A DNA stretch of 43,535 nucleotides from a virus: IMG/VR virus record IMGVR_UViG_3300007351_000024. One strand, 5' to 3'. The number at the start of each line of letters is the position of its first letter. Position 1 is the stretch's first letter. Shown here in pieces: positions 6,924 through 43,535 of this stretch. A program made the translations under genes and the position numbers. The notes beneath the pieces are model-generated. The model was given only the letters and a program-made list of their open reading frames with translations, was not told the DNA's origin and did no database searches.

Positions 6924-7148
6924 ATGAAAGAAACATGGAAAGAGCACAAAGGATTTAAGGACGAATCACCTCGTCCCATGTACATCCAATTCCCAGACTG
7001 GTGGTATAAGGAGCACAACCTAGAGCCAGTGGAGCTTTGGACACTTAAAAATATTAAGTTAGAGGTTATAGGTAAGTCCAATTTACCTACTTATACACAC
7101 GATGAACTTGACCAAGAAATAGCACAAGATACCATGAAGGGCACATGA
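6924..7148 (+). CDS. Hypothetical protein
   Basis: 74-aa ORF with an ATGA overlap into the GT6 gene. Confidence 0.55.
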   Translation: MKETWKEHKGFKDESPRPMYIQFPDWWYKEHNLEPVELWTLKNIKLEVIGKSNLPTYTHDELDQEIAQDTMKGT

Positions 7149-8350
7149 AGGTGCGAAAAGCAAAAATCGCTCTCCCAAAAAATAAGTATTTCTCCAAGTT
7201 TGAAGTAAATGATGACGGACTGGTAGCAGAAATTAAGGAAAAGAAGAAAGTAGCACTCCTATTCGTGTGCCTTAACGACCTCTACTGGCCGTATGTTATC
7301 CAGGTAGTAAAGGACTGTAAGAAACATTTTCTTCCTCACCACAACGTAGATTTCTTTGTCTGGTCAGATTTGCACCGTTTCCAAGAAGTGAAGAACAGTA
7401 TTGTAGCTGAATCTGAACACATTGTAGGTACTCCAAAGGAGAAAGCCGCCAAAGCAGTAGATTTTGCGGTAAAGACCATCCAATACTTCCAGCTCTATCC
7501 CGCTACCCCACAGTACGTCCAAGACCTACAGAAGATGCAGGTCTTTTATCGCGTTGACCCCTCTAAAGGAATTGCCTTTATCGAAGCCGCTGTAAATCAA
7601 GATGACGAGAAACAGGTCAACCATTTCGTAGACATCCTTAAATCAGTGTGTTTTTCCATCATTCGGTCAGCAGAAGAAGAATTGGAGAACTTCCTAAAAG
7701 GAGTAACGCTTATCGAATCAGACCCTGCGCCATGGCCAGCACCTACACTCATGCGCTACCACCTCTTCTTAAACGAAGAGGAAAGACTGAAGAAGTACGA
7801 CTATTTGTTTTACTTAGATTCCGACATGAAAGTCGTCCAGAAGGTGAGTGATGAACTCTTAGGAGAAGGTCTTACCGCCGCACCTCACCCTGGCTATGCG
7901 GTAAATAAGCGTATGTTGCCTCCGTATGAGCCAAATCCAGAGTCTACCGCCTACATTCATCGTTTGGGTCATGTTGTTGAGGAAGAGCCTGGAAAGAAGC
8001 GTTTTTACCCGTTCTACGCGGCAGGAGGACTCCAAGGAGGAGTCGCAAAGAAGTTCTTAAAGGCCATGAGGGTAATGAAAAAGGGAATCAATGATGATTT
8101 TGACAAGAATTACACCGCTATCTGGAACGACGAAAGCCATTGGAATAAGTATCTGTGGGAGTACCAGAGAAAAGGTGGCGACATTACGTTCCTTGACGTT
8201 TCATATGTATACCCTGATTCTCTCTTGAAAGAGTATTACATCCCCATGTGGGGCAAAGAATACGAGCCCAAGATAATCACCCTTACAAAACCTTGGTCTG
8301 TCTCAAAAGAAGGAGGTAGACAACTCTCGGAGTTCATCAAACCGCAATGA
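7145..8350 (+). CDS. Glycosyltransferase family 6 (ABO / alpha-1,3-Gal(NAc)-transferase-like), DXD-containing
   Basis: 401 aa. These motifs align with human GTA/GTB as I recall them: 'KKHFLPHHNVDFFVWSD' (KHF..GH.V..YVFTD), 'YDYLFYLDSDM' (DYLVCVDVDM), 'LTAAPHPGYA', 'YEPNPESTAYI' (YERRPQSQAYI), 'FYAAGGLQGG' (FYYLGGFFGG) and 'IWNDESHWNKYLW' (VWHDESHLNKYLL). Confidence 0.85.
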   Translation: MKVRKAKIALPKNKYFSKFEVNDDGLVAEIKEKKKVALLFVCLNDLYWPYVIQVVKDCKKHFLPHHNVDFFVWSDLHRFQEVKNSIVAESEHIVGTPKEKAAKAVDFAVKTIQYFQLYPATPQYVQDLQKMQVFYRVDPSKGIAFIEAAVNQDDEKQVNHFVDILKSVCFSIIRSAEEELENFLKGVTLIESDPAPWPAPTLMRYHLFLNEEERLKKYDYLFYLDSDMKVVQKVSDELLGEGLTAAPHPGYAVNKRMLPPYEPNPESTAYIHRLGHVVEEEPGKKRFYPFYAAGGLQGGVAKKFLKAMRVMKKGINDDFDKNYTAIWNDESHWNKYLWEYQRKGGDITFLDVSYVYPDSLLKEYYIPMWGKEYEPKIITLTKPWSVSKEGGRQLSEFIKPQ

Positions 8351-9012
8351 AAACTACTTGCATAATTCCGAGCTACAACCAAGAAGAATACTTGGAAGAG
8401 GCGATAGAATCGGCCTTAGCTCAATCAGTTCCCTGTGAAGTACTTGTGATAGACGATGGTAGTACGGATAACTCCCTTGCAATCGCACAGAAATACGAGC
8501 CACGAGTGAGGGTAATTAGTCAGGTGAATAAAGGATTAGCGAGTGCGCGGAACACGGGGATAATGAACGCGACTGGAGAATACATTTTACCTCTCGATGC
8601 GGACGATTCCTTACTTCCTAGGTGTGTTGAGGTCTTAGAGATGATTGCCGATGCAACTGGCGCAGAGGTTGTATCTCCATCATTTCAGGAGTATGGGTTA
8701 GGAACTGCCACAGTTACCTTGATGGCGAATCCTACATTGGAGGACTTCAAAGTAGGTAATCGTGTTGGGTATTGTTCTCTGATAAAGAAATCAGCTTTGT
8801 TAGAAGTTGGAGGATATTCACCTCGAATGGTTGAAGGATACGAAGACCTGCATATGTGGTTCAACTTACTCACCAGAGGTTTTAGAATCGTTACCGTACC
8901 GGAGCCGTTATGGAAATATCGAATTAAAGAAAAGTCCATGTTTAAGGATGCACTCAAACACCACGACAAGCTAATGGCGCAGATTTATAAGGATTTTCCA
9001 CAAGCAAAATAA
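8347..9012 (+). CDS. Glycosyltransferase family 2
   Basis: 221 aa. 'CIIPSYNQEEYLEEAIESALAQS', 'VLVIDDGSTDNS', 'NKGLASARNTGI' and 'LPLDADD' form the classic GT-A/GT2 signature. It has an ATGA overlap upstream. Confidence 0.9.
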   Translation: MKTTCIIPSYNQEEYLEEAIESALAQSVPCEVLVIDDGSTDNSLAIAQKYEPRVRVISQVNKGLASARNTGIMNATGEYILPLDADDSLLPRCVEVLEMIADATGAEVVSPSFQEYGLGTATVTLMANPTLEDFKVGNRVGYCSLIKKSALLEVGGYSPRMVEGYEDLHMWFNLLTRGFRIVTVPEPLWKYRIKEKSMFKDALKHHDKLMAQIYKDFPQAK

Positions 9013-9013
9013 T

Positions 9014-9613
9014 ATGCCTAAAGTCTCTATAGTCATCCCCTATCACGATACTCCACAGACAGCGTTCTTTCTATGTCGCTTACTGGCAACACTCAATGAA
9101 CAGACATATCAAAATTACGAGATTGTTCTAATGAAAGAGGGAAGAATGGGAAAGACCTACAATGCGTGCATAAAGAAAGCCACGGGGGACATTATAAAGC
9201 TCATGGGAATGGATGATTACTTCTTTGACAAAGATTCATTACAGAAAATTGTAGATGCTTTCAAACATGAGGAGGTGTATTGGCTTGCCACCGCATGTCT
9301 GCACGACCAAGGGAAAGGACCAAATAATTACCACGAAGCGAATTGGAATGACAAGCTGTTTAAGGGATACAACACAGTAGGTGGATTTGCGACCATCAGT
9401 TTGAGAAACAAGGATATACCAGAAATTGATGAATCACTTGATTGGACGGTAGATGTGGACTGGTACTGGCGTATTTATAAGCAACACGGCCTCCCTTACA
9501 CGATTAAGGATGCCGTCGTGGTCATTGGTGTTGGGCCTCATCAAACCACGGAGAAAATTAGCATGGAACAGAAGAATAAAGAATGGGAGGAAACTTCTAA
9601 AAAATATGAGTAA
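9014..9613 (+). CDS. GT2-like (GT-A fold) glycosyltransferase
   Basis: 199 aa. 'VSIVIPYHD...LATLNEQTYQNYEIVL' and 'GDIIKLMGMDDYF' (DD as a DXD-like motif) are present. It is more diverged than the preceding GT2. Confidence 0.65.
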   Translation: MPKVSIVIPYHDTPQTAFFLCRLLATLNEQTYQNYEIVLMKEGRMGKTYNACIKKATGDIIKLMGMDDYFFDKDSLQKIVDAFKHEEVYWLATACLHDQGKGPNNYHEANWNDKLFKGYNTVGGFATISLRNKDIPEIDESLDWTVDVDWYWRIYKQHGLPYTIKDAVVVIGVGPHQTTEKISMEQKNKEWEETSKKYE

Positions 9614-10625
9614 ACGAGTATTGTTAACTGGCATTTCAGGTTCGATTGCGACTCATTTTGTAGCGCACTTCATGCACAACACCGATTGGGAAATAATCGG
9701 CATTGACTCGTTCAGGCACAAAGGATGGGGTGAGCGTTTGCTTGAAGTTACCAGTGAACACCCTGAATGGAGAGACAGAATCTCTGTCCATACCCATGAC
9801 CTCTCGGCTCCCCTTTCACCGATTCTTAAAAGACGCCTTGGGAAGATTGATTACATCATCTCTATGGCTTCCCTTTCTGACGTAGAAGCCTCTATTCAAG
9901 ACCCTGTGCCTTTTGTACAAAACAATGTTAACTTAGCCCTTAACTTACTTGAATATGCGAGAGAAGCGAAACCCGAAGTCTTTATCCAAATCTCAACCGA
10001 TGAAGTCTACGGTGCGTCTGCCTCGAAGTTTGGTGATTTACGGAAAGAGTGGGATGCCATTATCCCTTCTAATCCCTATGCCGCTTCAAAGGCGGCGCAA
10101 GAAGCCATAGCTATCTCTTACTGGAGAACCTATGGTGTCCCTGTAATCATCACAAACACGATGAATAACTTTGGGGAAATGCAACAACCCACTAAATATC
10201 CCGTGATGATTCAGAAAGCAGTAGAAAATGGCGAAACTATTCTCATTCATGGAAGGGAGGGACAAATCGGCTCTCGCTCATACATCCACTCACGGAACTT
10301 TGCGGATGCAATTTTGTTCATTCTCAAGAATCTTCCTCCTCACATGCACGTACCGCTTTCAGCGGATAGGCCGGATAGGTATAACATTGCAGGAGATAAA
10401 CAACTGGATAATCTTGAACTCGCACAGACAATCGCCTCTCTCATGGGGAAAGAATTAAAATACGAACTCGTTGACTCTCACAGTGCCCGACCTGGACACG
10501 ACCCGCACTATGGCCTTGATATGACGAAGCTATACAGCAAGGGTTGGAAATCACCGAAAACGTTTGAAGAATCCCTTTCTGGAACTATCAAATGGCAACA
10601 GGAGCATAAAGAATGGATTGAATAA
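9606..10625 (+). CDS. NDP-hexose 4,6-dehydratase (RmlB/RfbB-like extended SDR)
   Basis: I moved the start from 9453 to the in-frame ATG at 9606 ('MSKRVLLTGISGSIATH', a Rossmann motif). 'STDEVYG', 'YAASKAAQE' (YxxxK), 'TNTMNNFGEMQQP' and the C-terminal 'RPGHDPHYGLD...GW.P' are all present. Confidence 0.85.
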   Translation: MSKRVLLTGISGSIATHFVAHFMHNTDWEIIGIDSFRHKGWGERLLEVTSEHPEWRDRISVHTHDLSAPLSPILKRRLGKIDYIISMASLSDVEASIQDPVPFVQNNVNLALNLLEYAREAKPEVFIQISTDEVYGASASKFGDLRKEWDAIIPSNPYAASKAAQEAIAISYWRTYGVPVIITNTMNNFGEMQQPTKYPVMIQKAVENGETILIHGREGQIGSRSYIHSRNFADAILFILKNLPPHMHVPLSADRPDRYNIAGDKQLDNLELAQTIASLMGKELKYELVDSHSARPGHDPHYGLDMTKLYSKGWKSPKTFEESLSGTIKWQQEHKEWIE

Positions 10626-10626
10626 T

Positions 10627-10776
10627 ATGTTAAAACTTCCTCCCAAATACAAGACAAAAAGAAAAGGGCGTCCACAACCCAACTCTCACCCCTGGAAACA
10701 GGTTTTCGTACTCACCTATCCTAAGAAAATCTTTTCTTCTGGGTATAAGATAAAAAAGAACCATGCGACCCGTTAG
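10627..10776 (+). CDS. Possible small basic protein (49 aa)
   Basis: The ATG lies 1 nt after the dehydratase stop, the typical junction here. It fills an otherwise unusual 137-nt gap and overlaps the GT11 start by 14 nt. It has no recognisable motif. Confidence 0.3.
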   Translation: MLKLPPKYKTKRKGRPQPNSHPWKQVFVLTYPKKIFSSGYKIKKNHATR

Positions 10777-11350
10777 ACAAGTCATCGGAGGGTTGGGCAA
10801 TCTCATGTTCAAGGAGGCGTTTTTGTGGTCTTTGGCGCGTGAGAAGTTGATACCTGATGTGTATGTTCAGGGTGAACATTATTGGGAAAAATATGCACAT
10901 GAGATACAAACACTATTTGGTCATGGTATTGGCCATGATGAGCGCATTGCTCTACATATTCGTAGAGGAGACTACTTAAAAGTTCAACAATTTCACGTCA
11001 ACCTTTGGGACACTGATTATTATAAAGTAGCAGTTTCTCTGTTCCCAAAAGAAAAGTTCCTCGTGTTTTGTAAGGACAATCAAAGTGAAGCACAAGACAA
11101 GGATGACCGTGAGTGGTGTGAAAAGAATATCCCATCATTGGGTATTGATTTTGAACTCCACAATCACACAACAGAAACAGAGGATATGAACACAATGGCC
11201 AGTTGTAAAGGGATTATCATGGCAAATAGTAGCTTTTCTTGGTGGGCGGCGTACTTAGGAAATCCTAAAAAGAAAGTCGTTTGCCCTGCGAAATGGTTTA
11301 CGGATGGAGCACAAAGGACGCAATTACTTTCTAAGTGGACTCTTGTATGA
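10763..11350 (+). CDS. Glycosyltransferase family 11 (alpha-1,2-fucosyltransferase-like)
   Basis: 195 aa. 'VIGGLGNLMFKEAF' corresponds to GGLGNQMFQYA, 'ALHIRRGDY' to HIRRGDY, and 'MANSSFSWWAAYLG' to SNSTFSWWAAYL. Confidence 0.85.
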   Translation: MRPVRQVIGGLGNLMFKEAFLWSLAREKLIPDVYVQGEHYWEKYAHEIQTLFGHGIGHDERIALHIRRGDYLKVQQFHVNLWDTDYYKVAVSLFPKEKFLVFCKDNQSEAQDKDDREWCEKNIPSLGIDFELHNHTTETEDMNTMASCKGIIMANSSFSWWAAYLGNPKKKVVCPAKWFTDGAQRTQLLSKWTLV

Positions 11351-12291
11351 AAGTTGCAATCACAGGTTCATTAGGTCTTACAGGTTCAGCTTGTATGGAG
11401 ATGTGTAAGAAGAAAGGATGGACTCCTGTTGGAGTAGACGCAAATATGCGCAGCTACTTTTTCGGTACTCCTAAACAGGAATATGGCGATTCCATTGAAC
11501 TGGATATAAGAAACCAAGAAGCTGTTGAGGAGCTTTTTAAGCAACACAAGTTTGACGCAATCATTCATACAGCCGCACAACCATCTCACGATTGGGCAAA
11601 GAACGACCCTTTAATGGACTTCGATACAAATGCACGAGCCACCCTCATTCTCTTAGAGGCGACACGCAAGTACGCTCCAGATGCAATTTTTGTGCATGTA
11701 TCTACTGACAAGGTATATGGTGAAAATATGACAGGAAGTGAAAAACCTTTCACTGAAACGCTTGGATTAGACTTTGCAGGTGTTCGTTCCCTATTTGGAT
11801 GCTCAAAAGCCGCTTCTGATATGTACGCACAGGAATATGCAAACTATTTCGGAATGAAAGTTGTAGTGTTTCGTCCTGGGTGCATAACAGGAAAAGTCCA
11901 TCAAGGTGCGGAATATCACGGATTCCTTGCGTATCTAGCGAAGTGCATTAAAGAGGGAATTACCTACAAAGTGCATGGGGATGGCAAACAAGTACGCGAC
12001 CAAATACATGCGAGTGATTTAGCAGATGCGTTCGGGCACGTTATTTCTGACTTTAAGGGAAGTAATGTCTACAACATTGGGGGTGGACCGAACCGTTCTG
12101 TTTCTCTCCTAGAGGCAGTTGATATGATTGAGAAAGAGACAGGGAAGAAAGCCAAATTAGAGTTTGGATTCCCTAACAGGAGAGGAGACCGCCTATGGGA
12201 TGTACATGATGTAACAAAGTTCCGTTCCGATTACCCTGATTGGGACTATCAATACTCACTACAAGATATTATTAAAGAACTTTCTGCATGA
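11347..12291 (+). CDS. NAD-dependent sugar epimerase/reductase (extended SDR, CDP-paratose/tyvelose 2-epimerase-like)
   Basis: I set the start at ATG 11347 (ATGA overlap with the GT11 stop; 'MKVAITGSLGLTGSA'). 'STDKVYG' and 'YGCSKAASDMYAQEYANYFGMKVVVFRPGCITG' (YxxxK) are present. Confidence 0.8.
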   Translation: MKVAITGSLGLTGSACMEMCKKKGWTPVGVDANMRSYFFGTPKQEYGDSIELDIRNQEAVEELFKQHKFDAIIHTAAQPSHDWAKNDPLMDFDTNARATLILLEATRKYAPDAIFVHVSTDKVYGENMTGSEKPFTETLGLDFAGVRSLFGCSKAASDMYAQEYANYFGMKVVVFRPGCITGKVHQGAEYHGFLAYLAKCIKEGITYKVHGDGKQVRDQIHASDLADAFGHVISDFKGSNVYNIGGGPNRSVSLLEAVDMIEKETGKKAKLEFGFPNRRGDRLWDVHDVTKFRSDYPDWDYQYSLQDIIKELSA

Positions 12292-13454
12292 AATATAAAT
12301 GGCGATACGGAGGGGCGCTAGTCGGTAAGGAAGAACGTAAGGCAATTCTTCGTTCCTTTGATAGCGGATGGTTCCCATGGGGTAAGGAGGGTGAAAAGTT
12401 TGAAGAAGAAGCCGCCAAGTATCTTGGAGTAAAGTATGGTCTTGGTGCTAACAGTGGCTCAAGTGCTGGATTACTTGCGTTAAGTGCCCTTGAATTGGAA
12501 AAGGGTAGTGAGGTTATCATTCCGGCGGTTACATTCCCTACAATCTTCAACATAATTCTTCAGTGTGGCCTCATTCCTGTTGTCGTAGATACCAAGGTAG
12601 GAACCTACAACATAGACCCTGACCAGATAGAAAAAGCAATTTCAGGAAAGACGAAAGCGATTATCTGTGTCCATGCAGTAGGGAACCCCTGCGACATGGA
12701 ACGCATTATGAAGATAGCTAACGAACACAAACTATATGTCATTGAAGACAACTGCGACGGTTGGGGAGGTACTATTGGCTCTAAAAGAGTTGGAACATTT
12801 GGCCACATATCCTTCACCTCATTCCATGCCGCGCATATTGTTGCTATGGGACAAGGTGGGGGAGTATTTACGAACGATAGAGAACTTGCCCGTAAAGTGC
12901 GAATGTATCGAGACTGGGGAAGACAAAGTGAAATCAAAAGCAGAATCAACAATAAAAAATGGCCGACGCTCCCCGAAGACCAAGACGCGAGGTTCATCTA
13001 CGAAAAGATAGGGTACAACCTTTCTCCTCTTGAATTACAAGCGGCGATGGGGAGAGTTCAGTTGCGAAAGACAGAGAAAATTAAACGATTGCGGAGAAGA
13101 AACTTTGATTATCTCTATAAAGAACTTTCAAAGTTTGATGACTTAATAATGCCAATAACAGTAGAGGGTGCTAACCCCTCATGGTTTTCTTTTCCCCTTA
13201 CAACGACGGAAGAACGTATGCCGCTTCTCATGCACTTAGAAGAGAACGGTGTAGAGACAAGAAGCATGTTTGCAGGGAACGTGCTACGTCATCCGGCCTA
13301 TGAGGGAGTGCCACACCGACAAGTGGGGAATCTCCAAAACTCTGATTACATTCTTCGCCATTCATTCTGGATACCTGTGCATCCTCGCTACTCTCCAAAA
13401 GACCTTAAAGGAATGGTTAAGGTCTTCGAGAAGTTCTATGCTAAAACTTCCTAA
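12288..13454 (+). CDS. DegT/DnrJ/EryC1-family PLP/PMP enzyme, sugar 3-dehydrase-like (E1/ColD-like). His occupies the Schiff-base Lys position.
   Basis: 388 aa. Motifs are 'NSGSSAGLLAL', 'IIPAVTFPT', 'EDNCDGWG', 'SFHAAHIVAMGQGG' (typical aminotransferases have SFH..K....GEGG), 'RDWGR', 'GYNLSPLELQAAMG', 'PSWFSFP' and 'FAGNVLRHPAY'. Confidence 0.8.
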   Translation: MKYKWRYGGALVGKEERKAILRSFDSGWFPWGKEGEKFEEEAAKYLGVKYGLGANSGSSAGLLALSALELEKGSEVIIPAVTFPTIFNIILQCGLIPVVVDTKVGTYNIDPDQIEKAISGKTKAIICVHAVGNPCDMERIMKIANEHKLYVIEDNCDGWGGTIGSKRVGTFGHISFTSFHAAHIVAMGQGGGVFTNDRELARKVRMYRDWGRQSEIKSRINNKKWPTLPEDQDARFIYEKIGYNLSPLELQAAMGRVQLRKTEKIKRLRRRNFDYLYKELSKFDDLIMPITVEGANPSWFSFPLTTTEERMPLLMHLEENGVETRSMFAGNVLRHPAYEGVPHRQVGNLQNSDYILRHSFWIPVHPRYSPKDLKGMVKVFEKFYAKTS

Positions 13455-14022
13455 CGTAACACTCATTCTCCTCACTAACCGCGACTTCGCGGGAGCTAAA
13501 AAAGCTATTGATGAGTCATGCAATGAGATAGAGTTTGGAGGTGTAAAGCTGATTTGGGATGAAAAGATTTCCTCCATTGATGAATGGAATCGCAAGGTAA
13601 TTCAAGAGTTACCAGATTATGTTCACACTACCCATGCCCTCCTCATTCACCAAGACGGCTACGTAAAGAATCCAGCGTTATGGAATACGGAATGGTTGCT
13701 TTTAGATTACATAGGTGCTCCATGGCCTATGCCTGTAGATAATTTTTCCTACAAGGATGATAAAGGTAGACTGCAACGAGTTGGAAACAGTGTGTCGTTA
13801 CGTTCTAAGGAGCTCATGGAATTAGTAAGAACGAGAGAGTGGCGACCTTACTACGGATTTACTAATGAGGATGGCTTTATCTGTTGCCATAACAGGGGTT
13901 GGCTCGAAGACCAAGGGTGTAAGTTTGCAACGCTTGAGCAAGCAGTTCATTTCTCTAAGGAACATGAGATACCAGAGAATAAAGGCATTAACACGTTTGC
14001 ATTTCATAAAGTAGATGTATGA
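13438..14022 (+). CDS. DUF5672-like putative glycosyltransferase
   Basis: I set the start at the in-frame ATG 13438 ('MLKLPNVTLILLTNRDF'). 'HQDGYVKNPALW...LDYIGAPW...VGNSVSLRSKEL' matches my recollection of the DUF5672 pattern (H.DG...n...W..fl.yDYIGAPW...vGNGGfSLRs). Confidence 0.55.
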   Translation: MLKLPNVTLILLTNRDFAGAKKAIDESCNEIEFGGVKLIWDEKISSIDEWNRKVIQELPDYVHTTHALLIHQDGYVKNPALWNTEWLLLDYIGAPWPMPVDNFSYKDDKGRLQRVGNSVSLRSKELMELVRTREWRPYYGFTNEDGFICCHNRGWLEDQGCKFATLEQAVHFSKEHEIPENKGINTFAFHKVDV

Positions 14023-14531
14023 GTATTGCAGAAGAAAAATACGAAGAGCTACTGAAAACCCCCTCGGATGTAAACATGCACTTCCCTACAATACGGAAGT
14101 ATGTGAAAGAGGGAGACATTGTCGTTGAGCTGGGCGTGCGTAACTGTGTTTCTACGTGGGCACTCTTAGTGAGTAAACCAAAGCATCTTATTTCAGTAGA
14201 CATAGTTGCTCCTCCTTTTGGGAATGTCTTGGAAGTAGAACAAGCGGCACGAGAGCAAGGAAGTGGATTTAATTTTGTACAGCAAGACTCAATAAACATT
14301 GAGATTAAACCTGCGTGCGATGTCCTGTTCATAGACACACTCCATTTGTATAGCCATATCGTCAAAGAGTTGTGGCGTCATGCGGGAAGAACAAAAAAGT
14401 ACATCATCTTCCATGACTATCTCATTCCTGAAGTCAGCGCATGTATCCATGATTTTCTCTACAATCCTGATTGGGAATGGCAAGAAATTAACTCGGAGGG
14501 AACGGGACTCGCAGTAGTGAAGCACGTATGA
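14019..14531 (+). CDS. Class I SAM-dependent methyltransferase
   Basis: 170 aa. 'SDVNMHFPTIRKYVKEGDIVVELGVRNCVSTWALL' and 'DVLFIDTLHLYSHIVKELWRHAGRTKKYIIFHD' match a common phage and bacterial methyltransferase family. It has ATGA overlaps on both sides. Confidence 0.7.
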   Translation: MSIAEEKYEELLKTPSDVNMHFPTIRKYVKEGDIVVELGVRNCVSTWALLVSKPKHLISVDIVAPPFGNVLEVEQAAREQGSGFNFVQQDSINIEIKPACDVLFIDTLHLYSHIVKELWRHAGRTKKYIIFHDYLIPEVSACIHDFLYNPDWEWQEINSEGTGLAVVKHV

Positions 14532-15220
14532 TTCTCATAACAGGTTACAGAGGATGGATTGGCTCTCTTCTTGCTGATGAGTTTGACGAGTTTTCAGGTA
14601 TTGATGTAAGAGATGGGACAAACCTCATTACGTGTGCTCTACCACCTCCAGAAGAAGTAGATATCATCTATCATCTTGCGGCTCAATCTTCTGTGGAGTA
14701 TTCATGGTACGACCCAATCCATGATGCAGATAACCTGCGAATGACTATTAGGTTAGTACATGCGTATCCTGAAGCGAAACTTATCTATACAAACTCTGCG
14801 GCATCAAAAGACCGTTCATCTCCGTATGGATTCTCTAAATGGGCGTGCGCTGAATATATCAAGCAATTCCACAACAATTACGTCATTTGCACACTCCCTA
14901 ATGTATATGGCGAGGGTTCCCGAAGTGTCGTAGATATCTTCAAAGAACTGGATGAAGTGGAGGTATATGGAAGTGGAGATAACACAAGAACGTATGTGCA
15001 CGTAGATGATATCATTCAAGCACTGCTCAAAGCCCAAGATTGGCGGTGTGGTGAATATGAGTTGGGTAATGGAATAGCAACGAGTGTTATTGAACTCGCA
15101 CAAGGAAAGAAAGTGAATCATTTGCCTCCTCGTATGGAATCGAAAGAATCTGTCATTCAGAACTCTACTCCAAATTGGGAACCGAAGATAAATGTGTTTG
15201 AGTATTTGAAAGATGTATGA
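14528..15220 (+). CDS. Short NAD(P)-dependent epimerase/reductase (SDR)
   Basis: 230 aa. It has 'MILITGYRGWIGSLL' (Rossmann motif), 'IIYHLAAQSS', 'YGFSKWACAEY' (YxxxK) and 'LPNVYGEG'. Confidence 0.7.
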   Translation: MILITGYRGWIGSLLADEFDEFSGIDVRDGTNLITCALPPPEEVDIIYHLAAQSSVEYSWYDPIHDADNLRMTIRLVHAYPEAKLIYTNSAASKDRSSPYGFSKWACAEYIKQFHNNYVICTLPNVYGEGSRSVVDIFKELDEVEVYGSGDNTRTYVHVDDIIQALLKAQDWRCGEYELGNGIATSVIELAQGKKVNHLPPRMESKESVIQNSTPNWEPKINVFEYLKDV

Positions 15221-16017
15221 TTGCTGGGATTTTCCATGAAGGTAGCGGATTAGGCGACCAACTCTTTAGATACATTACTGTCAGGACTCTTGCAGAAGAA
15301 AAAGGATATAAGTTTTCTATGGTTTTTCCCGAAGCATTCAAAGCAAACTTCTTTCTTAATTTAACTACTATTGAACCATTCCAACCAAAGTCTAAAGACT
15401 CTACATTTCACGCGAGTCGTTGGAATGAGAAAGAAGTAAAAGAAAATGGTTTAGACATTCGGTCCTACGACCCTGAAATTAACTTTGTAGAAGATAACAC
15501 CGTTATTGATGGTTCATTTGAAGACTCAAAGTATTGGGGACACAACTTAGATAACATTAACAAGTGGTTGCGAGTAGAACCGTTAGAAGTACCTAACGAT
15601 ACTGTAGTTCTCGGTTTTCGAGGTGGAGAGTATTACACAGACCCGAATCTTGGATTACCAAGAGAGTATTTTGAGAACGCAATGAGTTATTTTACTCCTC
15701 GTGTTGAGTTTCAAGTGCATACCGATGACCCCGATTTTGCGATGAAGTTCTTTCATAGCGTGAAAGGGAACATGAGCTTTGTAGATAACAAACCTATTTC
15801 ACATAGTAAACATGAAAATATGGGATTCAATTGGAGGTCAGCGCGATTTGCAAAGCACGCAATAATTCCTAACAGTGCTTTCTTTATTCTTCCTCGCTTA
15901 CTGAAACATCATGAAGACCCTACTGCTGTGACGATAGCTCCGCGTTATTGGGCTAGACGCAACACAAAGACCTGGGCTAGACCTGCTTGTTACTACAAGC
16001 AATTCACGTATGTTTGA
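15217..16017 (+). CDS. GT11-like / fucosyltransferase-fold glycosyltransferase (diverged)
   Basis: 266 aa. 'GSGLGDQLFRYITVRTLAEEKGY' is motif I-like, 'VLGFRGGEYY' stands in place of HIRRGDY, and 'AIIPNSAFFILPRLL' stands in place of SNSTFSWW. Confidence 0.5.
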   Translation: MIAGIFHEGSGLGDQLFRYITVRTLAEEKGYKFSMVFPEAFKANFFLNLTTIEPFQPKSKDSTFHASRWNEKEVKENGLDIRSYDPEINFVEDNTVIDGSFEDSKYWGHNLDNINKWLRVEPLEVPNDTVVLGFRGGEYYTDPNLGLPREYFENAMSYFTPRVEFQVHTDDPDFAMKFFHSVKGNMSFVDNKPISHSKHENMGFNWRSARFAKHAIIPNSAFFILPRLLKHHEDPTAVTIAPRYWARRNTKTWARPACYYKQFTYV

Positions 16018-16065
16018 TTACCCGAAAAGTTGGGTTTGGAATCTTATTCTTAGAGTAATCGAACT

Positions 16066-16710
16066 ATGGAAGCGGTACTTGTAAATTACAACTATAACCC
16101 GACGTGGGTGCTAGAATATCCTGATTTAGAGCCAATTATTTACGATAGGAGCGACGATGGGATTGAGAGGAATCTGACGCGCTATGGCCCTGTATATAAA
16201 ACAGAGAATATTGGCAATGTTGATTACGACAAACTAGGATACTTAATCAAAAACTATGATGCTCTTCCTGAATATTTCTTGTGGGGGAAATCGAACCTAT
16301 TCAAATACATTTCAAAAGAAGAATTTGATGCAGTCAAAGATAATCAAACCTTCACTCCATTGCTAACACAGAACCACCATACGTACTCTGATAATACGTT
16401 GCCTGAAGGTAATCCGGTTTGTTTCTACAAAGACAAAATGTATCACGAAAGAAAAGGCATCGTTAATACCCTTCCAGGGTTAATGCTCCACAAATACTTC
16501 GATTCGTGGGAAGAGTGGTGTAAAGAGTTTCATATTCCTGAAGTTGGTCATATTCCCTTTCCACCAGGTGGCAACTTTATCCTCACACGAGAAGCAGTTT
16601 GGAAATATAGTCGTGATTTCTACCAAAAGATGCGTGATACACTGGACTATACACAGCTTCCTTTTGAAGCGCAGTTAGCCGAGAGGAGTTATTACTTGTT
16701 ATGGCGATAA
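16066..16710 (+). CDS. Hypothetical protein inside the glycan operon
   Basis: 214-aa ORF that overlaps the next gene by 10 nt. 'NIGNVDYDKLGYLIKNYDALPEYFLWGK' is faintly reminiscent of DUF3431-type proteins, with very low certainty. Confidence 0.55.
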   Translation: MEAVLVNYNYNPTWVLEYPDLEPIIYDRSDDGIERNLTRYGPVYKTENIGNVDYDKLGYLIKNYDALPEYFLWGKSNLFKYISKEEFDAVKDNQTFTPLLTQNHHTYSDNTLPEGNPVCFYKDKMYHERKGIVNTLPGLMLHKYFDSWEEWCKEFHIPEVGHIPFPPGGNFILTREAVWKYSRDFYQKMRDTLDYTQLPFEAQLAERSYYLLWR

Positions 16711-17477
16711 TTGATTGTTTCACCTATAACGGAGAACGAGATATCTTGCGAATTCATCTTGAATGTACGCCATGGGTAGATAAGTACATCATCGTTGAAG
16801 CAAATCAGACATTCACAGGGAAGCCAAAACCTCTCTATTTCTTCAGGGACAATCGCTATTACAAGAAATGGTGGAACAAGATTGATTATTTCGTGGTAAA
16901 TAAGTGGGACGATGATGCTCTCTGGGAAACAGCACGTTCTAGTCCACTCACAAAAGGGGCAGAGCACTGGAAGCGAGAGTTTTACACAAAAGAGCATGTA
17001 CTTAGAGCTCTTCGCTCATGTGGTACTCAACCTGACGACATTGTATATGTAGGGGATGTAGATGAGATTCCTATGCAATGGAATGGTCCTATGCCAGCTA
17101 AATTACGGCTTAAAGTCTATGCGAATTACCTCAACAATCGCTCAAACGAGCTATTCTGGGGCACATACGTAGCGCCATATAATTATTTTAAGGACAGGTT
17201 GATGAATAACGAACGCAACAGGAAAGATATCCGAACCAACGAAGAATGTGGCTGGCATTTCACTAGCATGGGGGGACTAAAGGAAGTACAACGCAAACTT
17301 AATGACACTTACACAGCCGAAACATATGCCGCACCACAGATTCTTGAAATGGTTCCTGAACGCCACGCAAAAGCAGTAGATATATTTGGAAGACACTACA
17401 CATTTACGGTGGATGAATCGGAATGGCCTACGTATCTCAAGGAGAATAGAGCTAAGTTCAAACATTTATGTCTGTAG
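16701..17477 (+). CDS. Glycosyltransferase family 17-like (GnT-III-like), paralogue 1
   Basis: 258 aa. It has 'IIDCFTYNGERDILRIHLE...VDKYIIVEANQTFTGKPKPLYF', 'VGDVDEIP' and 'CGWHFTSMGG', which is the GT17 pattern (DcF.f.nE.d.L..Rl...VD.FviVEs..TF.G..Kpl ... DvDEIP ... GWHfS). Confidence 0.75.
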   Translation: MAIIDCFTYNGERDILRIHLECTPWVDKYIIVEANQTFTGKPKPLYFFRDNRYYKKWWNKIDYFVVNKWDDDALWETARSSPLTKGAEHWKREFYTKEHVLRALRSCGTQPDDIVYVGDVDEIPMQWNGPMPAKLRLKVYANYLNNRSNELFWGTYVAPYNYFKDRLMNNERNRKDIRTNEECGWHFTSMGGLKEVQRKLNDTYTAETYAAPQILEMVPERHAKAVDIFGRHYTFTVDESEWPTYLKENRAKFKHLCL

Positions 17478-18250
17478 TAGATTGTTTCACGTATTCGGGA
17501 GAGGTAGATATGCTCCATTTGCACTTATCCTGTCTTGACCCATACGTTGACCACTTTATACTAGGAGAAGCCGCGATAACGTTCTCTGGTCGCACAAAAC
17601 CTCTCTATTTTGACGAACAGTATACACAAGAGAGATTCCAAAAGTTCGTTCACAAAATCACCTATGCAGTCGTGGATGACTTCTATCATCCTAGTATTCT
17701 CAAGTACATGCAGAGGTTTAATTGGTATGAGATGAACTATCCATTCAAGATGTCTTTCAACCAAAAAGAACACCTGCAAGTAGGGTTGTCAGCACTAGGA
17801 TTAAAGGAATCTGACACTGTATATTTCGGCGATTGTGATGAGATTTGGACGCCACAAACACCTCAAAAGGAAGCGCATAAGTTGGAACAACTCATGTACT
17901 CATATCACCTAAACAGGCGTTCAACAGAGAAATGGGCGGGCACGTTTATTGCTCCTTACAAGGAAGTGAAAGAGAAAGGAATCAATCATTTGCGTAAAGA
18001 AACCACCAAGACACTACCAAATGGCGGCTGGCACTTTACGAATATGGGTGGCCTAGAGGCGGTACACAAGAAACTACGAGACTACGACCACCAAGAGATA
18101 AACACGGCGGACATCCATTCCAACCTTGAAAGGAGATTCAAAGAAGGCATTGATTTCTTGGGTAGAGAACACCGTATGTATGTAGATGAATCAGAGTGGC
18201 CTATCTACCTAAAGGAACATAGAGAAGAATACAAACACTTATGTCTATAG
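17468..18250 (+). CDS. Glycosyltransferase family 17-like, paralogue 2
   Basis: 260 aa. It has 'VVDCFTYSGEVDMLHLHL...VDHFILGEAAITFSGRTKPLYF', 'FGDCDEIW' and 'GGWHFTNMGG'. It shares the C-terminal '...EWP.YLKE.R..(F/Y)KHLCL' with paralogue 1. Confidence 0.75.
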   Translation: MSVVDCFTYSGEVDMLHLHLSCLDPYVDHFILGEAAITFSGRTKPLYFDEQYTQERFQKFVHKITYAVVDDFYHPSILKYMQRFNWYEMNYPFKMSFNQKEHLQVGLSALGLKESDTVYFGDCDEIWTPQTPQKEAHKLEQLMYSYHLNRRSTEKWAGTFIAPYKEVKEKGINHLRKETTKTLPNGGWHFTNMGGLEAVHKKLRDYDHQEINTADIHSNLERRFKEGIDFLGREHRMYVDESEWPIYLKEHREEYKHLCL

Positions 18251-18371: not shown

Positions 18372-18662
18372 ATGCAAGAAGAAGAGAATACAGGAGAACA
18401 GGAAAAAAACAGCAGAGAATGGCTTAAACCTTATCAATACAAGAAAGGGCAAAGTGGAAACCCTGATGGAAGACCTAAAGGTTCCGTATCGATGAAGACA
18501 TATGTGAAGAATAAGTTGCTCTCAATGACTCCAGAGGAGAGAGAAGAGTTTTTAGAGGGAATTGATAAGAAGACGATATGGGAGATGGCAGAGAATAAAC
18601 CAACCCAAGACCTACAAGTAGATGCAGATGTCAGAGAACACATCATCAGCGTTGACGAATGA
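18372..18662 (+). CDS. Putative small terminase / DNA-binding protein (DUF5681-like 'GNPDGRPKG' motif)
   Basis: 96 aa, immediately upstream of the large terminase and overlapping it. The motif is 'KKGQSGNPDGRPKGS'. Confidence 0.5.
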   Translation: MQEEENTGEQEKNSREWLKPYQYKKGQSGNPDGRPKGSVSMKTYVKNKLLSMTPEEREEFLEGIDKKTIWEMAENKPTQDLQVDADVREHIISVDE

Positions 18663-20025
18663 GAGCATTGATAAGTTCTCGGACTTGTCAGGTTTCTTTC
18701 CTAAACAGCGTGAAGCACAAGAGGCAAGCAAACGCTTCAAGTTCACTTTATTTGGTGGAAGTGTAGGAAGTGGTAAATCAAGGTGGCTTCGCTGGATGAT
18801 GATTTACTGGCTCTTAAAGTACTACTCCAAGTACAAGATAAAGGGCATAAGAGCAGGATTGTTTTGTGAGGATTATCCCAGCTTGAACGACAGACACTTA
18901 ACCAAGGTTCGCTTTGAGTTCCCTGAATGGCTAGGAACATACAACGAGTCTAAAAAAGAGTTCACTCTTAAAGAGAAATATGGAAGTGGCATCCTTGCGT
19001 TTCGTAACCTTGATGAACCAGAGAAATACTTGTCTGTTGAGTTTGCTGTCATGGGAGTAGATGAAATCAATCGTAACCCTAAGACCACTTTTGATATGTT
19101 GCGTTCACGTCTTCGATGGCCTGGTATTAAAGATGTGAAGTTCCTTGCGGGATGTAACCCTCTAGGAGAGGCGTGGGTAAAGAATATCTGGGTCAAACGT
19201 CTCTTCTCACCAGAAGAGAAAGAGCAATACGAGTTTGTGTTCGTTCCTGCATTACCTACTGACAATCCACACTTAGATGCGTCGTACTACAAATCTCTTG
19301 AATCACTGCCTGAAACACAACGCAAAGCATATTTGGAGGGAAATTGGGATGCGTTTGATGAAGGCATGGATGAGAAGGGCTACTTGCGTTTAGTGAATGA
19401 CAGAGAATTACGTGGCTCAATGGTACAAACAGGAGAGCACTCTGGGTACAGAGTATTAGGCGTTGACCCTGCGGCTGGTGGAGACAATTCAGCCATAGTG
19501 TTGAAGAGCGCAAACCTGCAAGAAATCCTCTTCAATCAGAAGCTACAGAACACCATGGACTTAGTTGGAGTCATTATGGAGTTATATAGGGACTATGAGG
19601 CGGCAATGATTGTAGTGGACTCAACAGGAGTAGGACGTGGAGTGTATGACCGCTTACGTGAGACAGATTATCCTGTGAGGAATGTGGACTTTGGTTCTAA
19701 GCCAACAGATGAAACGATGTTTAAGGACATCAAGGCAGAGCTGTATTGGAAACAGCGAGAATGGCTCTTAAAGGGAGGACGCTTGTTACATAACTACGGA
19801 TGGAATGAGTTTGAGATAGTGAAGTACAAGCACATGGATGGAAACTCCAAGATTCGCATACAGCCTAAAGAGGAGTTGTTCAGAGAGGGCATCGCTTCTC
19901 CCAACTGTGTGGACGCTGCCGTATTGACGATGGCAATAAGCGACACCACAATAAGAAGCAATCGTATGCTTAACAGCGGTACTGTGTTTAGAGACAAAAT
20001 GCTCGACGTATGGCAAGGAAACTAA
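18622..20025 (+). CDS. terL: Terminase large subunit
   Basis: 467 aa. It has a Walker A motif 'GGSVGSGKS' and a Walker B-like 'VMGVDEINR'. The C-terminal nuclease-like region includes 'VLGVDPAAGGDNSAIV'. It sits upstream of the portal gene. Confidence 0.9.
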   Translation: MQMSENTSSALTNESIDKFSDLSGFFPKQREAQEASKRFKFTLFGGSVGSGKSRWLRWMMIYWLLKYYSKYKIKGIRAGLFCEDYPSLNDRHLTKVRFEFPEWLGTYNESKKEFTLKEKYGSGILAFRNLDEPEKYLSVEFAVMGVDEINRNPKTTFDMLRSRLRWPGIKDVKFLAGCNPLGEAWVKNIWVKRLFSPEEKEQYEFVFVPALPTDNPHLDASYYKSLESLPETQRKAYLEGNWDAFDEGMDEKGYLRLVNDRELRGSMVQTGEHSGYRVLGVDPAAGGDNSAIVLKSANLQEILFNQKLQNTMDLVGVIMELYRDYEAAMIVVDSTGVGRGVYDRLRETDYPVRNVDFGSKPTDETMFKDIKAELYWKQREWLLKGGRLLHNYGWNEFEIVKYKHMDGNSKIRIQPKEELFREGIASPNCVDAAVLTMAISDTTIRSNRMLNSGTVFRDKMLDVWQGN

Positions 20026-20453
20026 AGAAAAAGAAAGATTCGATTGACCTACAGAAGTTTGGAGGAACCGATGATTTAGGGAAGGTTGATTTTGATGGGC
20101 ATCAGCATGATGTGCAGTCTATTGAAGTGAAGTCAGAGACTAAGTTGACTGATGACCCATTTGAAGGAGCAGTAGCTATCATTCGTAAGTTTACCTTTGG
20201 TGCAAACCCTCAAGCGTTCAAAGAGTATAAACCTACCAAGCAAGAACTGTTCAATTCACACTTGAAAGGCATTGAGATTGCATTGTGGAGAGACGGTATG
20301 CAGATAAACACACGCATTGAACCACAGATACATTTCGATGAGAAGCAATTACGCTATTCAATTTTTGTTGGCGCAAAGCCAGCACGAGGTCATTTAGTAA
20401 CACAGACTCCATTAAGCCTACGGGAGATAGCACAAGATACACATGGCATATAG
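20010..20453 (+). CDS. Hypothetical protein between terminase and portal
   Basis: 147-aa ORF that overlaps both neighbours. Confidence 0.55.
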   Translation: MARKLKKKKDSIDLQKFGGTDDLGKVDFDGHQHDVQSIEVKSETKLTDDPFEGAVAIIRKFTFGANPQAFKEYKPTKQELFNSHLKGIEIALWRDGMQINTRIEPQIHFDEKQLRYSIFVGAKPARGHLVTQTPLSLREIAQDTHGI

Positions 20454-22422
20454 CATGAACGCAGAGTCGAAGAAGTTTCGGGACGCATTGCCCGAGGGTA
20501 TTAAGCGACTCTATACGTACTACGATGAGTCGTTTTACTATCTGAATCCGCGCAAGATGCGCCAAGTGAACCAGATTGCATTAATGAATAACCTTCAGAG
20601 AGGTGATGAGAACATTGCATCTACTCTCTTGCTCACGCTCTTTAATCGCGTCATGTCGTCCCTCTATGATAACAAGATGCAGATTAAGTTCGTGCCATCA
20701 GAGGAATTGAGTCAGAAGAAGATTAACTCACTCAATGTGTTAGCACAGAACGACTATCGAGAGATGGATAAGGCACAACTCGACTACGATTGGACGTGGG
20801 ACACACTCTTCTTTGGAAGAGGCTACATGGAAACGTTACGCTTTGACCAAACACGAAAGATAATGCGCCCCCATGTCATTAACCCTCTCGTATTTGGGTA
20901 TGACCCCTTCTTCTCTGAACCACAAGAGTGGCGCTACTACTGGAAGTGGCTTACTAAGAGTAAGCATGAGTTAGAGCAGTTGATTAACGCTGGCGTCATT
21001 ACAGGTATAAAGAGTTGCGAGGAGATTCAATCAGGTGTTGACCCGTATTTGTGGAACTACAAGATAATCAGAGACAAAGCAAAGTTTGTTACTCCTAATC
21101 CTGATGACTCATATAACGGAGATATCTACCAAATCATGGAGATGTTTGCCTATGATGAGGATGGAGATAAGTGTGTGTATTGGCTCGACAAAGATTTCTC
21201 TAAAGTCTTGTATCATTTCAAATTAGACTTACGAGATGGTGAAGATTTAATCGCTCCGAATGGTCAGGTAATAAAAACAAAGAGCAAATGGCCTATTGTT
21301 GTGAAAGAAGCGTTCCGTGAACCACACTCAACAATTAACTTCTCTGTTGCTGACCTCTTAGAAGACAAACACCGTGCTCGTTCTGTCCTTCTTAACCTTG
21401 CATTTCTTGCGGCAAAGGACAAAGCAAATCCTCTGTATCAATACGACCCTGATAAAGTGCGTGATGTCTCACAACTTCTTTCACGTCAGATATACCAGCA
21501 CATTCCTGTTACTGACGTAGTGAACGCAATCGCTCCTCTCAACACTGATGCGGCTCTTGACCCATCCCTTCAAGCGTTCATGCAGGTATTGAATACCGAG
21601 GCTTCTGACCCTGTGGGAACCAACATACAGGCTTCACCTCGTAAGTCATCAGAGACTGCTACAGAAGCCGCTATCCAACAGCAACTATCAGACCTTGCAC
21701 AGTCTTTACAAAGTAAAGTACTCCAATTCGGTGAGGCAGAGTTCTGGAGCCATTGGTATTGCAGGTATCGTCGTTACACTAAGGCTGGGAACATGAAGAT
21801 GGCAACTGTGGTAGGGGTTAAAGACGTTACTTTTGAGCTTATTGACCTCGGAGACATACAGACCAAATACCCTCCTGGTGTCCTAGTCTTCTCTGCGAAA
21901 GAAGCTGAATACAAGGAGCTTGTAGAGCGTAGAGACTTCATGGAGCTATACCCAGCATTTCAGCAGACGCTCTCTCCTGACGGTATGCGAAACTTCCAAA
22001 AGTACGTATTCTTCCCTAAGTTCCAATCCTTAGACCCTCAAACTATCGAGGTTCTTCTACCTGACTCTATTGACGAAATTACCGCTACCCAAGAGAATGA
22101 ATTACTAGATAAGAACGAAATGGTACAAGTGCAAGAAACTGACAATCACGAACAGCACTTAGTTGTCCACTCACAAGCTATGAACTCGTGGGCTAAGTGG
22201 ATACACATTGAATGGCATAAAACATTACTTGCAGAACAAAAGAAGATGCAAATGATGCAAGCACAAATGCAACCAATGCAGGGAGAGATGGGAGCACCTG
22301 GTGTTCCTCCTGAACCTGAAATCCCACAGCCAGGGGTTGCAAACCAAAACCCAAGAGAGGCGGCTTCCTCTCTTCGGAAAGAGACATTAGCAAATATCGG
22401 CCAAAAGAATATGCAACAATAA
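20443..22422 (+). CDS. Portal protein (putative)
   Basis: 659 aa. The assignment rests on size and position downstream of terL, plus a Q/M/P-rich C-terminal tail. No motif I can name with certainty. Confidence 0.7.
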   Translation: MAYSMNAESKKFRDALPEGIKRLYTYYDESFYYLNPRKMRQVNQIALMNNLQRGDENIASTLLLTLFNRVMSSLYDNKMQIKFVPSEELSQKKINSLNVLAQNDYREMDKAQLDYDWTWDTLFFGRGYMETLRFDQTRKIMRPHVINPLVFGYDPFFSEPQEWRYYWKWLTKSKHELEQLINAGVITGIKSCEEIQSGVDPYLWNYKIIRDKAKFVTPNPDDSYNGDIYQIMEMFAYDEDGDKCVYWLDKDFSKVLYHFKLDLRDGEDLIAPNGQVIKTKSKWPIVVKEAFREPHSTINFSVADLLEDKHRARSVLLNLAFLAAKDKANPLYQYDPDKVRDVSQLLSRQIYQHIPVTDVVNAIAPLNTDAALDPSLQAFMQVLNTEASDPVGTNIQASPRKSSETATEAAIQQQLSDLAQSLQSKVLQFGEAEFWSHWYCRYRRYTKAGNMKMATVVGVKDVTFELIDLGDIQTKYPPGVLVFSAKEAEYKELVERRDFMELYPAFQQTLSPDGMRNFQKYVFFPKFQSLDPQTIEVLLPDSIDEITATQENELLDKNEMVQVQETDNHEQHLVVHSQAMNSWAKWIHIEWHKTLLAEQKKMQMMQAQMQPMQGEMGAPGVPPEPEIPQPGVANQNPREAASSLRKETLANIGQKNMQQ

Positions 22423-43330: not shown

Positions 43331-43516
43331 ATGGAGAAACCTGACTTAAATAAACCGGCGTTCAAAATCTTCCCTGAAATGGCAGAAAGAGTTATTAGAG
43401 GCGATTGTAGTTTTTGCGGCGAACCTGTCGGAAAGTTCAGAGATGGCCTATCAAGAAAAGAGTACGGAATATCGGGAATGTGCCAAAAGTGCCAAGATAA
43501 AGTCTTTAGTGAATAA
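43331..43516 (+). CDS. Small zinc-ribbon protein (61 aa)
   Basis: The Cys pattern is 'CSFCGEP...CQKCQ'. The 3' part lies in the terminal overlap and reappears at 1..80. Confidence 0.55.
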   Translation: MEKPDLNKPAFKIFPEMAERVIRGDCSFCGEPVGKFRDGLSRKEYGISGMCQKCQDKVFSE

Positions 43517-43535
43517 TTCCCCCCTATAACATCTA
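43437..43535. repeat. Terminal overlap, copy B (identical to 1..99)
   Basis: Exact 99-nt identity with the start of the window. Confidence 0.9.

Follow-up and report, generated by a model that had tools for sequence, protein, structure and literature searches.

The DNA analysed here is the phage genome recorded in IMG/VR as IMGVR_UViG_3300007351_000024, and its whole stretch of 43,535 bases is called the window below. An exact 99-bp repeat lies at both ends (1-99 = 43437-43535), which marks the window as a complete phage genome, assembled as a circle of about 43.4 kb. Within a large glycan island, the segment 9606-15220 encodes a nucleoside diphosphate (NDP)-glucose 4,6-dehydratase-like protein, a compact glycosyltransferase, an extended short-chain dehydrogenase/reductase (SDR) resembling tyvelose epimerase, a protein of the DegT family, a DUF5672 protein, a weakly methyltransferase-like protein and a second, short SDR (Table 1). 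The DegT-family protein, a homologue of the iron-sulfur enzyme E1, is the subject of this report. On balance, it is probable that this protein is a functional pyridoxamine 5′-phosphate (PMP)-dependent NDP-4-keto-6-deoxyhexose 3-dehydrase of the E1 (AscC/DdhC/RfbH) lineage, which would act in the manner of ColD, with neither a [2Fe-2S] cluster nor a reductase partner.

The open reading frame (ORF) 12288-13454 matches Pfam DegT_DnrJ_EryC1 (E 2.5e-90), and its top curated family is NCBIfam RfbH (NF011936), with a score of 376.1 bits that lies under the cut-off of 423. E1 (3bcx, 4e-84) is the best solved relative in the PDB, while ColD scores about 7e-50. An AlphaFold2 model calculated from 15 sequences has a pLDDT of 92.8, and Foldseek places E1 at the top (TM 0.94, 39% identity), with ColD at TM 0.89 and 27-28% identity. 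The initial annotation, made from the letters of the sequence, had proposed an E1-like scaffold, and these comparisons bear it out. All of the strings that it quoted are present, namely the two segments 12819-12860 and 12909-13022 discussed below and the motifs GYNL, PSWFSFP and FAGNVLRHP.

Bases 12819-12860 encode SFHAAHIVAMGQGG, in which a His had been read at the position of the Schiff-base Lys. HMMER pairs this residue, His183, with His220 of Yersinia E1 (3bcx), which is changed to Lys in the H220K structure (3bb8), and the register of the alignment is thereby fixed. His183 is also residue six of the pattern S-F-x-x-x-[K/H], which matches the Lys-type aminotransferase outgroups (SFYPTKNMTTGEGG). 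The proposed register is thus upheld, and no Lys stands at the catalytic position.

The DegT fold and all of the cofactor-binding residues are retained, as expected if the protein were instead a 4-aminotransferase, with a 4-amino-4,6-dideoxyhexose as its product. Such an outcome has a precedent in SpnQ, which, deprived of the reductase and given pyridoxal 5′-phosphate (PLP) and glutamate, turns its 4-keto substrate into the 4-amino sugar (PMC8987622). However, more than 150 clade members without exception have His in place of the catalytic Lys, while the genuine family aminotransferases, recovered as outgroups, retain Lys. In E1 and ColD, aminotransferase-like behaviour appears only after the reverse change from His to Lys (E1 H220K, PMC8987622; ColD H188K/S187N, structure 3gr9). 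Moreover, the N-acyl- and N-methyltransferases typical of amino-sugar branches are lacking. We therefore regard transamination as an improbable function of this enzyme, and 3-dehydration remains the preferred one.

Bases 12909-13022 encode RDWGRQSEIKSRINNKKWPTLPEDQDARFIYEKIGYNL, the loop from RDWGR to GYNL, in which there is no Cys. After RDWGR, E1 reads DCYCAPGCDNTC (D-C251-Y-C253-APG-C257-DNT-C261), where the phage protein shows a seven-residue gap and no cysteine, as the initial annotation had noted. We take the [2Fe-2S] ligands of E1 to be C193-X57-C251-X1-C253-X7-C261 (Agnihotri et al. 2004), in a numbering that agrees with the present alignment. Three of the four ligands are missing from the phage protein. 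C193 alone has a counterpart, C156 in EDNCDG, and since ColD also has a Cys at this position, C156 is not diagnostic of a cluster.

Are these two traits peculiar to this genome? The close homologues were taken as the best 120 matches in a collection of 5.8 billion proteins (67-100% identity, many on contigs of 40-46 kb), and all 120 have the His and no Cys after RDWGR. They carry the signature SFHAAHIV[AS]MGQGG, which begins SYHAAH in two of them. In addition, 31 phage-clade loci were gathered, comprising 28 IMG/VR loci, retrieved with an alignment query after a single-protein scan of IMG/VR had returned nothing, and three phage-like contigs that had been assigned to metagenome-assembled genomes (MAGs). 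The His is present in 31/31 of these loci, and their loops contain at most one Cys. In the alignment of the phage clade (A1), the cofactor-site residues NSGSS, D154, S178, H183, R235 and N244 of GYN are invariant; most of them are also invariant in alignment A2, and His183 is so in both.

The occurrence of both traits in all of the 120 homologues and in the 31 loci, together with the invariant cofactor residues, indicates that the gene is under selection, rather than a product of chance or decay. The missing cluster, and nothing further, would favour an inactive remnant or pseudo-enzyme. Against such a remnant stand the 57-76% identity across dozens of phage genomes with the cofactor site unchanged, the intact reading frame, and the inteins kept by some members, which must splice. 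We consider the idea scarcely credible, and treat the protein as a working enzyme.

A wider search covered 1.84 billion representatives at 50% identity and gave 3,223 matches below 1e-30, from which the best 120 with near-full coverage were used. In the Lys column, 119 of these representatives have His and one has Arg (the phage protein and E1 also being in the set). Among the 120 His-type sequences, the phage protein and E1 included, the loop holds at least three cysteines in 64 (the E1/SpnQ type), one or two in seven and none in 49. Cluster-free His enzymes are common and diverse, and occur in several lineages. In a neighbour-joining tree (380 alignment columns, 100 bootstraps), the phage clade is monophyletic (100/100), and its sister is another cluster-free clade with the signature S[FT]HAAHI (94/100). 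The members of the sister clade come from MAGs of uncultured Gammaproteobacteria, of the candidate phyla radiation (Daviesbacteria, Saccharibacteria, Patescibacteria), and of Gallionella and Verrucomicrobiota. The smallest clade to unite the phage clade, its sister and E1 excludes ColD (93/100). The E1-like enzyme is a conserved lineage, not a one-off, and the coarse tree fits either a loss of the cluster in this lineage or its absence from the beginning.

Several E1-like homologues (P0109, P0132, P0137 and P0156) have the DegT domain split near EDNCDG by Hint/intein domains, and one of them is a 623-residue member of the phage clade.

E1-type chemistry requires a supply of electrons, and the initial annotation had reported neither an E3-type reductase nor a nucleotidyltransferase. 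Consistently, none of the ORFs of at least 100 residues matches the Fer2, FNR-type or NTP_transferase families of Pfam, and by Cys counts the shorter ORFs include no ferredoxin-like small, Cys-rich one. Because the ends overlap by 99 bp, the absence of E3 and nucleotidyltransferase hits applies to the complete genome. Nucleotidyltransferases are also missing from all of the 31 phage loci; a cluster of RfbF-like transferases occurs in 18 of the 45 Fe-S-type cellular loci and in none of the phage ones. E3 did not emerge as a conserved neighbouring gene cluster of the Fe-S-type homologues. The long relatives are fusions to RmlD-like/SDR or GT2 domains, or intein carriers, and an E3-like domain was found in 0/10 tested.

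Two further proteins in the window deserve mention. The label 'ferredoxin', assigned through PHROGs to residues 177-249 of the protein encoded at 31953-34271, was dismissed, as it overlaps DUF3597/peptidase-type matches and points to a shared domain. A 127-residue ORF (107-490) has eight cysteines with an N-terminal CC..CC/C..C arrangement; it matches no family, and its pattern is not that of plant-type ferredoxins.

Could the electrons come directly from a host ferredoxin, flavodoxin or other reductant, in a reduction of the E1/SpnQ type? The sequence and the model are nearest to E1, and SpnQ itself draws on general cellular reductases, with no dedicated E3 (PMC8987622). Nevertheless, with three of the four ligands gone and the loop shortened, no one-electron conduit leads to the buried PMP-sugar adduct, and the searches of the complete genome revealed neither a reductase nor a ferredoxin. 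We judge this supply of electrons to be very unlikely. The missing ligands and the missing reductase leave the two-electron reduction of E1 and SpnQ without a route, and the ColD route is the only characterised alternative.

The characterised nucleotide-sugar 3-dehydratases are of three kinds, E1, SpnQ and ColD (PMC8987622), to which ColD-like Campylobacter enzymes can be added (PMC10440746). With E1 (CDP-6-deoxy-L-threo-D-glycero-4-hexulose 3-dehydrase; AscC/DdhC/RfbH; 3bcx, 3bb8), the phage protein shares the DegT fold, the His at the Lys position, action after a 4,6-dehydratase, and the motifs RDWGR, GYNL, PSWF.FP and FAGN..R.P. It differs from E1 by the lack of Cys251, Cys253 and Cys261, the loop shorter by seven residues, the sub-threshold RfbH score, and the absence of an E3 (AscD/RfbI) partner. 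Its context also differs, as it includes an RmlB-like dehydratase that is not of the CDP-glucose type, and no cytidylyltransferase. SpnQ (TDP-4-keto-2,6-dideoxyglucose 3-dehydrase of the spinosyn forosamine pathway) is likewise His-type, acts on a dTDP-sugar made through an RmlB-type dehydratase and has no dedicated E3. In contrast to the phage protein, SpnQ retains the [2Fe-2S] motif and needs general ferredoxin/flavodoxin reductases (PMC8987622).

ColD (GDP-4-keto-6-deoxy-D-mannose 3-dehydratase, WbdK of Escherichia coli O55; 2gms, 3b8x, 2r0t) shares with the phage protein the His and the lack of an Fe-S motif. It belongs to a separate clade at 27-28% identity, its motif is one residue shorter (SFYSHHIATMEGG), and it works in a GDP-mannose context with GDP-mannose 4,6-dehydratase (GMD) and ColC, whereas no GMD- or ColC-like gene was identified here. 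ColD is cluster-free and reductase-independent; its product is released by hydrolysis, and PMP is regenerated from L-glutamate. We propose ColD, together with the GDP-heptose C3-dehydratases of Campylobacter jejuni HS:5 and HS:11, as the working model for the phage enzyme, which thus resembles E1 and probably works like ColD. The literature searched contained nothing relevant on cluster-free enzymes of the E1 lineage or on phage-encoded 3,6-dideoxyhexose pathways. The PDB entry 9wvy ("putative NDP-4-keto-6-deoxyglucose-3-dehydratase") was not among the matches of another cluster-free representative.

How would the phage enzyme remove the 3-hydroxyl group? First, the RmlB-like enzyme encoded at 9606-10625 would convert host NDP-glucose (dTDP- or UDP-glucose) to NDP-4-keto-6-deoxyglucose. 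The C4 keto group of this sugar would then condense with PMP to form a ketimine. His183 is predicted to take the C4′ proton, and the departure of the 3-OH group would leave a 3,4-ene intermediate. Since no electrons could be delivered, hydrolysis and tautomerisation would release NDP-4-keto-3,6-dideoxyhexose and ammonia, as in ColD, and an amino-acid donor, most likely L-glutamate, would recharge PLP to PMP. Reductase-free turnover with PLP and L-glutamate is known for ColD (PMC8987622), and the C3-dehydratases of C. jejuni HS:5 and HS:11 were shown to follow the same reductase-free route (PMC10440746). Finally, an SDR would reduce C4, perhaps the 230-residue SDR in this genome and an SDR of 326-339 residues in other phages, and the product, possibly O-methylated, would be used by the soluble glycosyltransferases of the phage. 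A ColD-like, reductase-independent mechanism seems to us the most economical reading of these data.

Table 1. Coordinates of the E1-like gene, its neighbours and other landmarks of the window
Feature	Position	Strand	Remarks
E1-like, His-type, cluster-free homologue of PMP-dependent NDP-hexose 3-dehydrases, 388 aa	12288-13454	+	
His183 codon, Schiff-base Lys position	12834-12836	+	pairs with E1 His220
RDWGR...GYNL loop	12909-13022	+	38 residues, 0 Cys; in E1, 45 residues with C251/C253/C257/C261
RmlB-like NDP-glucose 4,6-dehydratase	9606-10625	+	STDEVYG, YAASK
CDP-tyvelose-2-epimerase-like extended SDR	11335-12291	+	PDB 9rl0 3.9e-39, 1orr 3.3e-31
Short extended SDR, 230 aa, SPYGFSK	14528-15220	+	Pfam Epimerase 2.4e-19; PDB GalE-like 2e-12
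Putative class I methyltransferase (weak)	14019-14531	+	Methyltransf_24 E 1.3e-3, sub-threshold
Compact GT11-family glycosyltransferase	10763-11350	+	Pfam Glyco_transf_11 3.1e-21; kept in 23/31 phage-clade loci
DUF5672 protein	13444-14022	+	Pfam PF18922 4.5e-11
Tandem GT17 paralogues	16701-17477 and 17468-18250	+	
Glycan island	7145-18250	+	14 co-oriented genes, directly upstream of terminase; holds 9606-15220 centrally
Large terminase	18622-20025		
SU10-type portal	20443-22422		
Major head protein	25300-26394		
Adaptor (SU10-type)	26434-27123		
M23 peptidase	38071-38718		
YopX protein	2352-2744		

The constant companion of the E1-like gene is the dehydratase gene, in which the initial annotation had recognised the Thr-Asp-Glu catalytic motif. 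The protein aligns over its full length with RmlB (6bi4, 1g1a), shares the T-D-E and YxxxK motifs with it, and matches the dTDP-glucose 4,6-dehydratase 6bi4 at 3e-41. Its score against TIGR01181, 192.6 bits, lies under the cut-off of 365.1, and the scores for the CDP-type and GMD families are 42.8 and 38.5. By these scores, it is a dehydratase of the RmlB-like (dTDP/UDP-glucose) type rather than of the GMD or CDP type, which argues against a GDP-linked donor of the colitose type. The STDEVYG motif is kept in 27/27 dehydratase homologues, and an RmlB-like dehydratase is encoded in every phage locus with enough upstream DNA; in 13 of the 31 loci, its stop codon directly adjoins the E1-like start. 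The cellular cluster-free relatives reside in clusters rich in glycosyltransferases and methyltransferases, always beside a YxxxK SDR, and a TDE dehydratase with 37% identity to the phage enzyme lies next to the relative in the cellular locus L082.

The SDR encoded upstream of the E1-like gene, which probably starts at the ATG at 11347, was correctly described as tyvelose-epimerase-like, in that TyvE/RfbE (1orr, 9rl0) is its nearest relative and the context S-T-x-K-V-Y-G plus G-C-S-K of the extended SDRs is shared. It differs by FGCSK in place of YGCSK (Phe codon 11794-11796) and by STDKVYG in place of STNKVYG. The Phe at the catalytic Tyr position and the STDK sequence occur together in 17/17 phage loci and in the nearest 120/120 database homologues, whereas the TyvE-like genes in the fetched cellular loci retain Tyr and Asn. 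The Phe variant also occurs away from 3-dehydrase genes, as a 63%-identical copy (L110:10001-10975) in a cellular Wzx/Wzy cluster without an E1-like gene. Because the catalytic Tyr is replaced, the gene is missing from about 40% of the related phages, and a copy resides in a cluster without an E1-like gene, a role as a paratose-to-tyvelose epimerase is doubtful. We rejected the possibility that this SDR replaces E3 in reducing the PMP-sugar adduct, because the adduct is bound to the enzyme, many phages have the dehydrase but not this SDR, and in a cellular locus the SDR occurs without a dehydrase.

The second short SDR, whose presence in the initial annotation was likewise borne out, gives a weak NCBIfam match to the 4-ketoreductase WbcJ (1.3e-5), and occurs in 11 of the 31 phage loci. 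It is the best candidate here for the 4-ketoreductase, an assignment that we do not make with confidence. Beside the dehydratase and the E1-like gene, the Phe variant is the only extra SDR in seven loci, the Phe variant and the short SDR coexist in ten cases including this window, another YxxxK SDR of 326-339 residues directly follows the E1-like gene in five loci, the short SDR is accompanied by a further divergent SDR in one locus, and the sampled DNA of five loci holds no additional SDR. The late, tailoring steps thus diversify from phage to phage. The SDR of 326-339 residues replaces both the TyvE-like and the short SDRs at L012:5743-6723, L014:2732-3751, L020:2330-3340 and L026:5218-6228.

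The ORF named as a methyltransferase is weakly methyltransferase-like, all of its matches being sub-threshold, and it has no sequence match in the PDB. Among seven homologues, Methyltransf_24 was matched in six and RMNT_CmcI (rhamnosyl-O-methyltransferase/CmcI) in three, all weakly.

Do these genes constitute one pathway, as had been proposed? The constancy of the dehydratase agrees with the proposal; the absence of the TyvE-like gene from so many phages and the variable set of SDRs do not, and the genes need not form a linear pathway. The dehydratase and the E1-like enzyme may form one branch, and the Phe-variant SDR, possibly joined by the short SDR and the methyltransferase, may serve another sugar or step. 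This arrangement would concern the pathway and not the assignment of the enzyme. Among the related phages with the dehydratase and the E1-like gene, about 40% lack the TyvE-like gene, which suggests such an arrangement, as do the cellular copy of that gene, its missing catalytic Tyr, and the restriction of the methyltransferase-like ORF to only about six related loci. On the other side, the genes share one orientation and are closely spaced, with stop/start overlaps of 11335-12291 with 12288-13454 and of 14019-14531 with 14528-15220, and in the classical Salmonella pathway the TyvE enzyme acts after paratose synthesis. We give separate branches a substantial chance, somewhat short of even; the Phe-variant SDR, in particular, may belong to such a branch.

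Several points weigh against the proposed 3-dehydrase function and mechanism. E1 itself was reported not to transaminate with PLP and glutamate (PMC8987622). As E1 is a closer relative of the phage clade than ColD is (93/100), competence of the clade for the half-reaction with the amino donor is an assumption. The neighbour-joining phylogeny is coarse, and the dehydratase sequence fits either dTDP or UDP as the nucleotide carrier. Furthermore, the seven phages with only the Phe-variant SDR and the five with no extra SDR in the sampled DNA leave the reduction step without an assigned gene. The dehydratase might itself reduce the product, as is reported for the GDP-mannose dehydratase of PBCV-1.

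The island that contains these genes extends over about 11 kb and includes nine or ten soluble glycosyltransferase-like genes. It encodes a GT6-like protein, two GT2 proteins, a GT11 and a GT11-like protein (15217-16017, phrog_2644), the DUF5672 protein, a DUF3431 protein and two GT17 proteins, in addition to the sugar-nucleotide enzymes. On its family match, the GT11 assignment of the compact glycosyltransferase is sound; as initially suggested, GT11 enzymes might transfer the deoxy sugar made here. GT17 is the family of β-1,4-mannosyl-glycoprotein GlcNAc-transferases and is mainly eukaryotic; in the related phages, usually one region alone matches both of the GT17 paralogues. In the locus L012 (6714-7892), the DUF5672 protein is fused to a methyltransferase-like domain. 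Wzx, Wzy and an initiating phosphoglycosyltransferase are absent from the island, and a hydropathy scan of its proteins found no transmembrane-like segment, except for a hydrophobic stretch in the Rossmann-like core of the E1-like enzyme. The absence of these components and of membrane segments points to a possible acceptor in the cytoplasm, for instance virion proteins.

The phage itself is remote from the cultured ones. The DNA of the island found no related match among the INPHARED phages, a protein search of INPHARED gave only distant phage homologues with identities of 39% or less, and the terminase matches those of cultured phages at only 24-31% identity. Among the scanned ORFs of the genome, none could be assigned to a DNA polymerase, primase or helicase family. 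A 1151-residue protein (34277-37732) ends in a CAP (cysteine-rich secretory protein) domain, and a 772-residue protein (31953-34271) has a DUF3597/peptidase-like segment, with PHROGs labels that vary between peptidase, endolysin and 'ferredoxin'; the two probably serve in the tail or in injection. The island also lies on three phage-type contigs from MAGs: L030 (43,426 bp) belongs to a MAG labelled Cellvibrionaceae, L031 (55,859 bp) to one labelled Zambryskibacteria, and L032 to one labelled Coxiella sp. (groundwater). L031 exceeds the length of a phage genome of this type. These labels are probably binning artefacts and no evidence of hosts.

What does a cluster-free E1 homologue mean for the family? 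Annotation pipelines call these proteins "CDP-6-deoxy-D-xylo-4-hexulose-3-dehydrase" or "E1". Such labels imply an iron-sulfur enzyme with an E3 partner, which cannot hold for the cluster-free proteins, and the distinction should be of use to deoxysugar enzymologists and to annotators of phage glycan genes. Since the chemistry of ColD is already cluster-free and the trait is frequent in sequence space, the finding is not very surprising. If the ColD-type chemistry is true, reductase-free deoxygenation at C-3 would be widespread, and would have arisen, or been kept, inside the E1 lineage; the clade would then offer new small enzymes for dideoxy-sugar synthesis.

A more far-reaching picture can be drawn only tentatively. 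A large branch of the E1 lineage, spread over environmental phages of about 43 kb and uncultured bacteria, might deoxygenate C-3 without iron-sulfur, independently of the ColD clade. A self-contained module of two genes, for the RmlB-like enzyme and the dehydrase, would start from host NDP-glucose, which is universal, and yield a 3,6-dideoxyhexose precursor. With the tyrosine-less TyvE-like SDR, whose chemistry would be non-canonical, the phage might build an unusual, possibly methylated dideoxy sugar, and its soluble glycosyltransferases would attach this sugar to a cytoplasmic acceptor, for example virion proteins. In this group of phages, soluble glycosyltransferases take up about a quarter of a 43-kb genome, and virion glycosylation and the remodelling of host glycans are the obvious possibilities for their purpose. 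If the proposed chemistry is true, a minimal, metal-free set of genes would suffice for these phages to produce 3,6-dideoxyhexoses from host NDP-glucose.

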